NCBI RefSeq assembly: GCF_003334785.1
Contig: NZ_QOWV01000001.1
Source of the DNA: Escherichia coli
GTDB lineage: Bacteria > Pseudomonadota > Gammaproteobacteria > Enterobacterales > Enterobacteriaceae
DNA length: 64,000 nucleotides
Strand: one strand, 5' to 3'
A program made the position numbers and the translations under genes. The notes under the pieces were generated by a model that saw nothing but the letters and a program-made list of their open reading frames with translations, was not told where the DNA came from and made no database searches. How positions within the stretch are numbered: the stretch's first letter is position 1; every line of letters starts with the position of its first letter. Shown in pieces: positions 29,735 through 35,677 of the stretch.

Positions 29735-31956
29735 AGCGTTGGTTCCCCCGGCGGTAACGGTTCAGCCGGGGTCGCGCCCGGAGCAGGCAGCACCTGATAA
29801 GTCTGCACTGGCGCGCGAACGCCCGCCAGGTCGAAATGTTTTTTCACCTGGCTGTCGAGGGCAAAGCGTACCGTCCACTGTTTGAGTGGCAGCGTGGTGA
29901 ACGAAACACGCAGTGTAAACGCGGTATTGCTTAAGCCGACAATCCCGGCAAAATTCGGTTCACCAATAATCAGCCCGCGAATTTCTTCGTTTTCCATTAA
30001 TTCCGCTACCGCATCTTTCAGTGCCTGATTGGCTTTATCAGCATCTTCATGGCGATCAACATCATAATTTGCCACCACCGAACCAATGCCGCGGACAAAG
30101 TTAGCAAAGGTGGTTATCGAAGACCACGGAATGATGTGATACGCCCCGGTATCCTGTCGTACGCCCACGGAGCGAATCGACATCCGTTCCACTGTGCCGG
30201 TCAACGGCCCGATAGTCACCAAATCTCCAGTGTTCATGCCGTTTTCAAACTGAATAAATACCCCGGTGATAATATCTTTCACCAGCGTTTGCGAACCAAA
30301 CGAGATAGCCAGACCTAATGCCCCGGCACCTGCCAGCAATGGCGCGATATTGACGCCGATTTCCGACAACACAATCATGATGGTGATGGTACTGATAATC
30401 ACCGCCAGCGCGTTACGAAACAGCGTAAGCAGGGTACGCGTGCGGGCGCTGGGTAGCGGGCGGCCATGAATATCCGAAGCCAGCCGGTTTTCGATCAAAC
30501 TGGCGAGCACCGTCCAGCCAACCGCCGAGAAGAAAAGAATGAGTGCGATACGGATCAGGATATCTACGGTTTTCTGCCCCGCGCCGTTTTGCAGCCAGTT
30601 CCAGAAATCGAACAATCCCCATGCGCTCAACAGCAACATTACCGCCACGCAGACTGTCAGAATACGCGCCGTTTTCAGCGCCGCCGACAGCCAGCCATTC
30701 AACCGTTTTTGCAGCTCCGGATAGTTACGCTGAGTATGTGGCGAGAGAGTGATGGTTTTCGCCAGCCAGCGGGAAAACATACCGGAAACAAACGCTGCGA
30801 TACCAATAATCGCCAGGCTGCGCACCGTTGCACCCATCATAAATTTCAGGCTGTTGCCCGGATCGAACAACGAAAAGAAAAACAGCACGATAAAATAGGC
30901 GCTTGCCAGCCAGTGCCACACCAGCGCAAAGGCGCGGATAAACAGGCTGAAAAAGGCCAGCGAATGCTCCGCGAAGTTGAGCAAATGCTGGGTAATCTCT
31001 TTTTTATTACGAAAGATCAGGTACAACGCCCAGACGGTCATGCACAGCATAATGATGACGTTCGCCAGCGCACCTATCTGTACATTCACCTGATTAGAGA
31101 TAATCGGCACGGCCACAATCAGGCCATAACCTATCAAACTGCTTAACCAGCTCAGGCGACGACTCCAGTAACGGGCGCTCTCGTCCTGAATCGTGAACGG
31201 GCGCAGCTCCGCCACGTTTGGGCAAAAAATCAGGCGTAGTACGGCTTTGAAAAATTCAATGAGGGCAAAGGCGTTGAGAAACAAACTTTGTTGGAAAGCG
31301 ATGGTGCGACTGCCTGCATTCAGGTTGTCGCTTAATACCTGGCCGACAAATAATGTCAGGGCCAGTAACAGCAGGTCGATAATAAACGCCCCGATAATCA
31401 TCGCCGGAAGCTGCAACCAGTTGCTGCGCTCACGATTTTTTTGCCGCGCCCACTGACCCATTTTGCGATACAGCGGCAGTGCGCACAGGCGAATCAGCCA
31501 GTAAAAACCAAACACTAATACCGCTAACATTGAAAAATGGGTCAGCGCATTGCTGAAGGTTTGTGGATTAAACGGCTTATGCGGGGAGCCGGTGATATTG
31601 CGATAAAGTTGCCCGAAGCGGGCGGAAAGGGCTTCACCATAATGGCGGCTGACTTCGGTGACCTTTTGCAGCACGGTTTGCTCTTCGACCAGCGTCGGCG
31701 GCACTATTTTTGGTACCGGTTCAGCAGGGGGCGTAGCGGCAACGGTGCGCAACTGGTCGATCAACTCTTTACGCGAGGTGTCATTATCCAGCACATCCGC
31801 CAGTGCGCCATAGGCCGCTTTTTTTTGTTCGATATCCGGTTCCGGGGCCGGTTCAGTCGTTGAGTCCGTTGCCGTTGTGGTTGTAACGCCGGGTATGGAT
31901 ACCGCGTGGGCAGGTGCGCCCAGCAGGCAGAAGAGGATGAACAGGATCCACCGCAT
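29731..31956 (-). CDS. ybiO: YbiO, MscS-family mechanosensitive channel (741 aa)
   Basis: ORF 29731..32091 minus; start at ATG 31956 (MRWILFILF, signal peptide); multi-TM plus MscS-like C-terminal domain. Confidence 0.9.
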
Positions 31957-32106
31957 GACTCCTCCAGTGAGAAAATAGAGCAAAAAGATAAGTATAGATG
32001 CTGGAGGAGGGGCGATTTTAAATGAGAGGAATCTGGTGTGCCTCCCTTTCGGGTGAAAGGGAGGAAGGGATATTAAGCAGGTTGCTGACAACGTGCGGGC
32101 TTTTTT

Positions 32107-32206
32107 GCCGGATGCGGCGTGAACGCCTTATCCGTCCTACAAGTTCATGCAATTTTAATAAGTTGCCAGATATCCTGTAGGCCTGATAAGCGTAGCGCAT
32201 CAGGCA
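32107..32206. repeat. REP/BIME cluster downstream of glnQ
   Basis: gccggatgcggcgtgaacgccttatccgtcctac and gtaggcctgataagcgtagcgcatcaggc. Confidence 0.85.
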
Positions 32207-32216
32207 ATGTGTCTTA

Positions 32217-32939
32217 TTAAGAGACGTGCTGCAAAAATTCCTGCAAGCGCTGGCTCGGCGGGTTCTTGATCAACACCTGCGGATTGCCATCTTCCGCAAT
32301 CCGGCCTTTGTCGATAAAGATCAGCCGCGAAGCTACTTTCTCGGCAAAACCGATTTCGTGGGTCACGATCACCATCGTCATCCCTTCTTCAGCCAGATCC
32401 TGCATAACCTTCAGCACTTCATGGCGCAGTTCCGGGTCAAGAGCGGAAGTCGGTTCATCAAACAGCATCATTTTCGGCTTCACCGCCAGCGCGCGGGCAA
32501 TCGCCACACGCTGCTGTTGACCACCAGAAAGTTCGGAAGGGTAGTGATGTGCACGTTCTGCCAGACCGACTTTCGCCAGCAGCTCACGTGCCAGTTTTTC
32601 CGCCTCTTCTTTGTTCGCGCCACGCACGCGTAGCGGGCCAAACATGACGTTTTCCAGCGCTGTCAGATGCGGGAAGAGGTAAAACTGCTGGAACACCATA
32701 CCTGCTTCCTGGCGAATCAGGCGCTCGTCAACTTTCGGATCGTTAACCTTCAGGCCATCGACAATCAGATCGCCGGAGGTGATTTCTTCCAGTTTGTTGA
32801 TGCAGCGCAGCAGGGTCGATTTACCGGAACCGGACGGCCCGATAATCACCACGACTTCGCCCTGGGCAATGTTCAAATCGATATTGTGCAGCACCTGGGT
32901 TGGGCCAAAGTGCTTGGAGACGTTTTTAAATTCAATCAC
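32217..32939 (-). CDS. glnQ: GlnQ, glutamine ABC transporter ATP-binding protein (240 aa)
   Basis: Walker [10 protein letters not shown]; signature LSGGQQQR. Confidence 0.96.
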
Positions 32940-33595
32940 AGGATTTTCATCCTTCTTTCCAGACGACGCAGAATAAAGCTCAGCACCAGGGTAATAATCA
33001 GATAGAACACCGCCACGGCGCTCCAGATCTCAAGGGCGCGGAAGTTACCGGCAATAATTTCTTGCCCCTGACGGGTCAGTTCCGCCACGCCGATCACAAT
33101 AAACAGCGAGGTGTCTTTAATGCTGATGATCCACTGGTTACCCAGCGGCGGCAGCATACGACGCAGTGCCAGCGGTAAAATGACGTAGCGAATGGTTTCC
33201 CAACGTGAAAGACCGAGCGCCAGTCCTGCTTCACGAAAACCTTTGTGGATAGACAGCACCGCACCACGCGTGATTTCCGCAATATACGCGCCGGAGTTGA
33301 TCATGATGGTGACCACCGCCGCAGTAAATGGGTCGATGCGTAAGTCGTTAAACGCCATCGGCAGGGCGAAATAAATAAACATCACCTGGACGACGATAGG
33401 TGTGCCGCGGATCACTTCAATAAAGACCAGCGCGACGTGGTTGGCTATCCAACCTCCGAAGGTGCGTGCAAAACCTGCCAGCAATCCGATTACCAGACCG
33501 CCTGCCAGACCGAGGACCGAAATCCACAGGGTCATTTTGGCACCTTCAATCAGAAGCGGAATGGCAGGCCAGATGGCACTCCAGTCAAACTGCAT
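32936..33595 (-). CDS. glnP: GlnP, glutamine ABC transporter permease (219 aa)
   Basis: ORF 32936..33595 minus; overlaps glnQ start by 4 nt. Confidence 0.96.
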
Positions 33596-33645: not shown

Positions 33646-33702
33646 GGCCCCGGAGCGGGTTTGCGCCCCTCACCCTAATCCTCTCCCCATAGGGGAGAGG
33701 GA
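33646..33702. repeat. Box C-like repetitive element in glnH-glnP intergenic region
   Basis: gcgcccctcaccctaatcctctccccataggggagagg with perfect inverted repeat cctctcccc/ggggagagg; resembles the enterobacterial Box C family (from memory). Confidence 0.6.
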
Positions 33703-35647: not shown

Positions 35648-35677
35648 TTCTGCATGGTTATGCATAACCATGCAGAA
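35648..35677. terminator. 30-bp perfect palindrome just downstream of rhtA stop (probable rhtA terminator hairpin)
   Basis: ttctgcatggttatgcataaccatgcagaa is self-complementary over its whole length. Confidence 0.5.

Follow-up and report, generated by a model that had tools for sequence, protein, structure and literature searches.

A stem-loop without a U-tract as the probable 3′ end of the glnHPQ message in Escherichia coli

INTRODUCTION

REP/BIME stem-loops, of which those of malE-malF are an example, can block 3′ exonucleases and thereby stabilize mRNA. The hairpin analyzed here, which lies between glnQ and ybiO, resembles them in being a stem-loop within the intergenic or 3′ region of an ABC-transporter operon, and in K-12 a REP block adjoins it. 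It differs from them in being single-copy and unrelated in sequence to REP, and in that the mapped RNA 3′ end at this locus lies at the hairpin and not at the REPs.

Dar and Sorek (2018) describe Rho-dependent transcripts that end precisely just past stable stem-loops lacking U's, with a mild enrichment of C over G following and with the structures protecting against PNPase and RNase II. With this class, the glnQ hairpin shares the U-less stem-loop, a precise adjacent 3′ end, the downstream excess of C over G, and a bicyclomycin-sensitive read-through; protection against the two exonucleases is a feature of the class that would extend to the glnQ hairpin by analogy. The remaining comparison is provided by the glnHPQ terminators of Citrobacter, Enterobacter, Kosakonia, and other Enterobacterales, which occupy the same place a few nucleotides past the glnQ stop codon. 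These carry 4 to 7 U's past the stem, whereas E. coli has CACA where UUUUUCA stands.

Here, we describe the structure, distribution, and orthology of the E. coli hairpin together with published transcript data for the locus. We consider it likely, with a probability of roughly 0.75, that the hairpin is the 3′-terminal stem-loop of the glnHPQ message, derived from a former terminator now lacking its U-tract, with Rho terminating transcription downstream and exonucleases trimming the RNA back to the stem, such that the glnQ message is protected.

RESULTS

A stable hairpin between glnQ and ybiO

The window, a stretch of E. coli DNA of 64,000 nucleotides, is colinear with E. coli K-12 MG1655 (3 mismatches in 12,001 bases), with window position + 813,524 giving the MG1655 coordinate. 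The genes at the locus, glnQ and ybiO among them, all lie on the minus strand. Three features define the region downstream of glnQ:

32217 to 32219, minus strand: glnQ stop codon TAA, from the open reading frame list and the MG1655 RefSeq annotation
32073 to 32216, minus strand: strain-variable REP/BIME block of 144 bp separating the glnQ stop codon from the hairpin and, in K-12-type strains, belonging to the glnQ 3′ UTR
32041 to 32064, minus strand: assigned glnHPQ mRNA 3′-terminal stem-loop, from its fold, its invariant stem, and a Citrobacter orthologue with a U-tract

On the plus strand, the hairpin reads cctcccttt-cgggtg-aaagggagg. The original prediction had placed a 9-bp stem at exactly this position, but the closing C-G pair also forms, and the minus-strand RNA, CCUCCCUUUC-ACCC-GAAAGGGAGG, thus has a perfect 10-bp stem and a 4-nt loop rather than a stem of 9 bp and a loop of 6 nt. 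Its folding energy as minus-strand RNA is −17.1 kcal/mol (z −5.5; mean of dinucleotide shuffles, −6.7), a stability reached by none of 200 shuffles. According to first-order Markov simulations of the window, 0.46 stems per 64 kb would be perfect over at least 10 bp and enclose a loop of 3 to 8 nt, every stem/loop setting being counted separately.

The surroundings of the hairpin agree with those described earlier. It lies between the REP cluster and ybiO, the end of its stem is 84 nt (about 85 nt had been given) upstream of the ybiO ATG (window 31956, minus strand), and a flanking T-run is missing in either orientation: on the minus strand, where the tail reads CACACCAGAUU, the 8 nt past the stem contain no T, and the plus strand has no T-run. 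The locus presents one half of an intrinsic terminator, a GC-rich stem-loop just 3′ of the last gene, while the other half, a U-tract with the 3′ end inside it, is absent from the E. coli hairpin, whose 3′ end falls in CACA.

A scan for consensus promoters and terminators made no call at the hairpin site. An Rfam scan of positions 31000 to 33000 at E ≤ 10 returned only sub-threshold noise over the hairpin (best score 22.6 bits against a gathering threshold of 100), and a sub-threshold match to the REP-derived naRNA4 at 32076 to 32137 belongs to the REP block. Two small open reading frames spanning the hairpin (plus strand, 32022 to 32180; minus strand, 32018 to 32200) were rejected because both extend into the strain-variable REP block.

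A published 3′ end and Rho signal just past the stem

Transcript data and base composition add two features immediately downstream of the stem:

32037, minus strand: published steady-state RNA 3′ end (MG1655 845561), from Term-seq in Adams et al. 2021, Supplementary file 1, sheet M63 0.4
31963 to 32040, minus strand: C-rich, G-poor untranslated stretch, a candidate Rho utilization region, overlapping the ybiO promoter

Mapping of 3′ ends had been proposed as a check in the original prediction, and the curated Term-seq data of Adams et al. 2021 (eLife 10:e62438) contain a single 3′ end between glnQ and ybiO, 845561(−). From its flanking sequence, ...GAAAGGGAGGCAC[A]CCAGATTCCT, the end falls at window 32037, which lies 4 nt beyond the stem. 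The end appears in M63 glucose and is absent from the LB OD 0.4 and OD 2.0 sheets, that is, it exceeds the authors' threshold in one of three conditions only. Its "orphan" label stems only from the REP block, which moves it to a distance of over 50 nt from the glnQ stop codon.

Supplementary file 2 of Adams et al. 2021, based on their DirectRNA-seq in the presence or absence of bicyclomycin, gives a Rho termination region with its most significant position at 845551(−) (window 32027), 10 nt downstream of the 845561 end; its Rho score of 4.04 (p 5.6e-9) was calculated over 800-nt windows with low read counts. Upstream and downstream reads were 83 and 58 without bicyclomycin, and 45 and 127 with it. 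Part of this signal could stem from the ybiO promoter being induced by bicyclomycin, and not from read-through. Over the 78 nt that follow the hairpin, the excess of C over G is 0.256, a value at the 99.93rd percentile when every 78-nt window of either strand of the 64-kb window is considered, making this stretch a candidate rut-like segment on compositional grounds.

The locus displays four traits of the U-less class. A stable stem-loop stands directly before a precise 3′ end (845561(−)), no U-rich tract follows the stem, and C exceeds G downstream; the rise in read-through with bicyclomycin comes from the published data, at 845551(−), and is to be read with the 800-nt windows, the low counts, and the possible ybiO promoter induction in mind. 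The hairpin is probably a U-less 3′-end protective stem-loop of a Rho-terminated operon, an ordinary feature of a described class. A search of the literature returned no small RNA from the glnQ 3′ UTR.

A second hairpin of similar build is found within the same operon, between glnH and glnP (window 33680 to 33700, minus strand; CCUCUCCCC-UAU-GGGGAGAGG), with a perfect 9-bp stem and no U-tract. Its Term-seq 3′ end, MG1655 847200(−), likewise lies 4 nt past the stem and is seen in all three growth conditions (Adams et al. 2021). Both hairpins have a pyrimidine-rich 5′ arm and a purine-rich 3′ arm. The glnH-glnP hairpin differs in being operon-internal and in being seen in three conditions, against M63 only for the glnQ hairpin; its role is presumably not to end the operon but to set the level by which glnH mRNA exceeds glnPQ.

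Two observations concern the sequence further upstream. A Term-seq 3′ end in LB OD 2.0 maps to window 34533 (MG1655 848057, minus strand), 53 nt before the glnH start codon in the glnH 5′ UTR, and could represent premature termination or processing in the glnHPQ leader. A perfect 13-bp palindrome, TTCTGCATGGTTA-TGCA-TAACCATGCAGAA, occupies positions 35648 to 35677, upstream of dps and immediately behind the rhtA stop codon; on the minus strand it has a U-rich tail, UUUCUCGCUACUUUU, and it is probably the rhtA terminator.

The Citrobacter orthologue of the hairpin carries a U-tract

The comparison across Enterobacterales covered 80 glnQ loci, one per species. A stable stem-loop is found within about 30 nt past the glnQ stop in nearly every one of them, and the first 70 nt past glnQ fold with a median z of −2.97 against shuffles, z being below −2 in 79% of the 80 species. 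The stem sequence differs by genus (GCCGGGC in Enterobacter, CCCCUCC in Kosakonia, GGCUCCCC in Raoultella), and the stem-loop is kept despite this turnover, as is, in most species, the run of U's after it. That arm sequences turn over while pairing and U-run persist argues for an RNA terminator rather than a sequence-specific DNA site. In 31 of the 46 loci adjacent to ybiO, at least 3 T's occur in the first 6 nt past the stem, compared to none in 8 nt in E. coli. Loci in which glnQ is followed by a neighbor other than ybiO (Kluyvera, Serratia, and Pectobacterium) have the hairpin too; it tracks glnQ, not ybiO.

The Citrobacter hairpin, CCTCCCTTC-GCCC-GAAGGGAGG followed by TTTT(T)CACCAGAATCCTCTCATTTC, is colinear with its E. 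coli counterpart, CCTCCCTTTC-ACCC-GAAAGGGAGG-CACACCAGATTCCTCTCATTT (...GGGAGG-CACACCAGATTCCTCTCATTT). Its stem is one T:A pair shorter (CCCTTC/GAAGGG against CCCTTTC/GAAAGGG in E. coli), a two-sided indel that preserves pairing, and the tail of Citrobacter sp. MGH106, TTCTACACCAG, is intermediate. With its UUUU(U), the Citrobacter hairpin has the makeup of a canonical intrinsic terminator. Because this colinear orthologue has a U-tract and E. coli has no U in the first 8 nt past the stem, we conclude that E. coli inherited an intrinsic glnHPQ terminator and lost its U-tract. The earlier verdict that the hairpin is not a typical terminator accordingly holds for the present E. coli sequence, which lacks the U-tract, but not for its descent. 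Salmonella and E. fergusonii are not among the 80 loci, which place the loss only broadly, in the lineage leading to E. coli.

In Escherichia albertii NBRC 107761 (locus L010, 2221 to 2560), neither a hairpin nor ybiO follows glnQ within 1.5 kb. The sequence downstream of glnQ in this strain resembles the post-terminator segment of Kluyvera and of some Serratia and Buttiauxella loci, and visual inspection suggests the terminus of a convergent gene.

The hairpin is single-copy and older than the adjacent REP block

Of 5,426 complete E. coli genomes, 5,421 carry the 116-nt segment that runs from the hairpin to ybiO, at a median of one place per genome, compared to a median of 38 places per genome for a query that contains the REPs. 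As a single-copy segment, the hairpin is not a REP/BIME repeat, for which multiple copies and the REP consensus would be expected. The full-length intergenic region including the REP cluster occurs in 2,230 of the 5,426 genomes. Three genomes with a shorter match were fetched to stand for the shorter-match majority (more than half of the 5,426), and all three are without the 144-bp block, with the hairpin starting 8 nt past the glnQ TAA. These alleles form two extra pairs, which gives a 12-bp stem of −22.3 kcal/mol (z −6.0). Because REP-less genomes have the hairpin in this position, the REP block is a later arrival, inserted between the glnQ stop codon and a glnQ-proximal hairpin that was already there.

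Among 10 E. coli alleles picked across 94 to 100% identity, all 20 stem positions are invariant and the loop varies (ACCC, CCCC, CCCU, and CCC). An invariant stem with a variable loop is suggestive but not significant, since only about 13 of the 116 columns vary.

The REP block itself has CTTAA at both of its junctions. On its plus strand, positions 32077 to 32106 read GCAGGTTG-CTGA-CAACGTGC, followed by GGGC and TTTTTT, resembling a terminator that points into glnQ antisense; this element varies among strains and did not come up in the terminator scan.

The predicted ybiO promoter lies downstream of the hairpin

Between the hairpin and ybiO, two elements are conserved:

31991 to 31997, minus strand: predicted sigmaS-type −10 element CTATACT of the ybiO promoter, from motif conservation
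32023 to 32036, minus strand: conserved motif CCAGATTCCTCTCA with a GA-N4-TC core, from sequences anchored on the −10 element

The expression of ybiO is RpoS-dependent (Edwards et al. 2012). At window 31997 to 31991 on the minus strand, an extended −10 element of sigmaS type, TCTATACTTA, is seen, and such an element (CTATACTT; [CT]TATACTT) is kept in 45 of the 46 ybiO-adjacent Enterobacterales species, usually 36 to 48 nt before the ybiO start codon. Its distance from the hairpin, downstream of which it lies, is 42 to 56 nt in most of these species and 44 nt in the window. Because this conserved −10 is downstream of the hairpin, the hairpin is predicted to fall outside the ybiO 5′ UTR, spanning roughly −57 to −80 relative to the predicted start.

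A sigma54 promoter upstream of ybiO has been predicted as well (RegulonDB, via Edwards et al. 2012). A sigma54 candidate overlapping the 3′ arm, AGGCAC-N5-ATTCC, was rejected, as it has no −12 GC and its −24/−12 elements are unconserved, and the RpoN gSELEX paper lists only the glnH-dps spacer, with no peak at the ybiO upstream region.

The motif CCAGATTCCTCTCA follows the consensus CCAGAWTnnTCYCA with an invariant GA-N4-TC core, abuts the hairpin, and is fixed 39 nt upstream of the −10 element, a spacing held in Escherichia, Citrobacter, Enterobacter, Kosakonia, Klebsiella, and others (loci L006 to L076). It is a probable upstream element of the ybiO promoter and is similar to an RcsB-type box located immediately 5′ of the −35 position. 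An inhibitor of LolCDE, which triggers envelope stress, induces ybiO 7- to 12-fold, and the motif is possibly an unrecognized activator site for ybiO.

DISCUSSION

In the reading that we prefer, that of a U-less terminal stem-loop behind which Rho acts, RNA polymerase is probably not released at the hairpin because the E. coli U-tract has been lost. Rho would load on the C-rich, G-poor untranslated RNA just past the hairpin and terminate transcription in or near the start of ybiO, and PNPase and RNase II would trim the RNA in the 3′-to-5′ direction until the stable stem stops them. Such trimming would leave the precise end 4 nt past the stem and keep the glnQ message protected. Of the two roles put forward in the original prediction, stabilization of the glnQ 3′ end gains support from the position of the hairpin 8 nt past the stop codon in REP-less genomes, from the Citrobacter orthology, and from the 3′ end 4 nt away. 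The other, a 5′ UTR structure controlling ybiO, is disfavored by the predicted −10 element downstream of the hairpin, by a 3′ end seen in minimal medium and not in stationary phase, when ybiO is induced, and by an unconserved Shine-Dalgarno pairing.

One alternative is that the hairpin still acts as a weak Rho-independent terminator despite the missing U-tract, perhaps aided by NusA or NusG. A strong GC-rich stem of direct descent from an intrinsic terminator and a precise 3′ end close to that stem would fit such activity; nevertheless, we regard it as unlikely, given the absence of U's in the 8 nt past the stem, an end that lies 4 nt past the stem instead of the usual 7 to 9 nt inside a U-tract, and the significant bicyclomycin effect peaking 10 nt downstream of that end. 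A Term-seq end alone cannot separate processing from termination, and cleavage by RNase III or RNase E could in principle generate the same end by splitting a glnHPQ-ybiO co-transcript. Read-through into ybiO is plausible without a U-tract, and a perfect stem of 10 to 12 bp could be nicked by a double-strand-specific nuclease. However, for RNase III a stem of 10 bp is short, the end is not in the stem but in single-stranded RNA, where a stalling exonuclease would leave it, and the published data indicate Rho dependence. Cleavage as the origin of the end is very unlikely, and even then the hairpin would remain a 3′ protective structure.

Equally remote is the proposal that the hairpin controls ybiO from its 5′ UTR, as a thermometer, an attenuator, or an anti-anti-Shine-Dalgarno element. 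The hairpin does lie only 84 nt upstream of the ybiO ATG, transcripts reading through from glnHPQ would carry it upstream of ybiO, and in the window allele the segment CUCCUCCAG (32003 to 32011) can pair with the ybiO Shine-Dalgarno region CUGGAGGAG, with the GGGAGG arm of the hairpin in principle able to compete for this C-rich segment. This competition model was rejected, as the pairing is broken by mutation of the segment in the other nine E. coli alleles (CUCCCCCAG) and the segment is absent in other genera, Citrobacter and Enterobacter among them; a second pairing with the Shine-Dalgarno region, by AUUCCUCUC, was likewise set aside as not conserved in Enterobacter. The conserved −10 element (CTATACTT) puts the hairpin upstream of the predicted transcription start, the equivalent hairpin of other genera is an ordinary terminator of unrelated sequence, no Rfam match was found, and the 3′ end is present in M63 and not in LB OD 2.0, where sigmaS is active. 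A role at the level of DNA, as a palindromic protein-binding site or a cruciform upstream of the ybiO promoter, would draw on the perfect palindrome at about −57 to −80 and on its abutting the conserved promoter-upstream motif. It is extremely improbable, given that the arms turn over completely between genera while pairing and U-tract persist, fitting an RNA terminator, and that the hairpin follows the glnQ stop even without ybiO as a neighbor, as in Kluyvera, Serratia, and Pectobacterium.

The value of the U-less terminal stem-loop is mostly one of annotation: it indicates where the E. coli glnHPQ message ends, and it places the predicted ybiO promoter downstream of the hairpin. The missing T-run is explained as the mark of a relic whose U-tract was lost and whose function Rho apparently took over. 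Hairpins of this kind are already catalogued, and the mild interest of the present one lies in the evolutionary loss of the U-tract, with termination apparently passed to Rho.

A wider consequence, which we consider unlikely, would be that the E. coli lineage switched its glnHPQ terminator from intrinsic to Rho-dependent by deletion of the U-tract, and that read-through into ybiO from glnHPQ promoters under nitrogen control became conditional on Rho. If this were true, read-through into ybiO, which encodes a mechanosensitive channel, would depend on Rho, and hence on translation and metabolic state, and ybiO expression would be coupled to nitrogen status, a coupling that sister genera with an intact terminator would lack. 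As an orthologue-anchored case of an intrinsic terminator decaying to a U-less protective hairpin, the locus may serve as a test case for terminator evolution.
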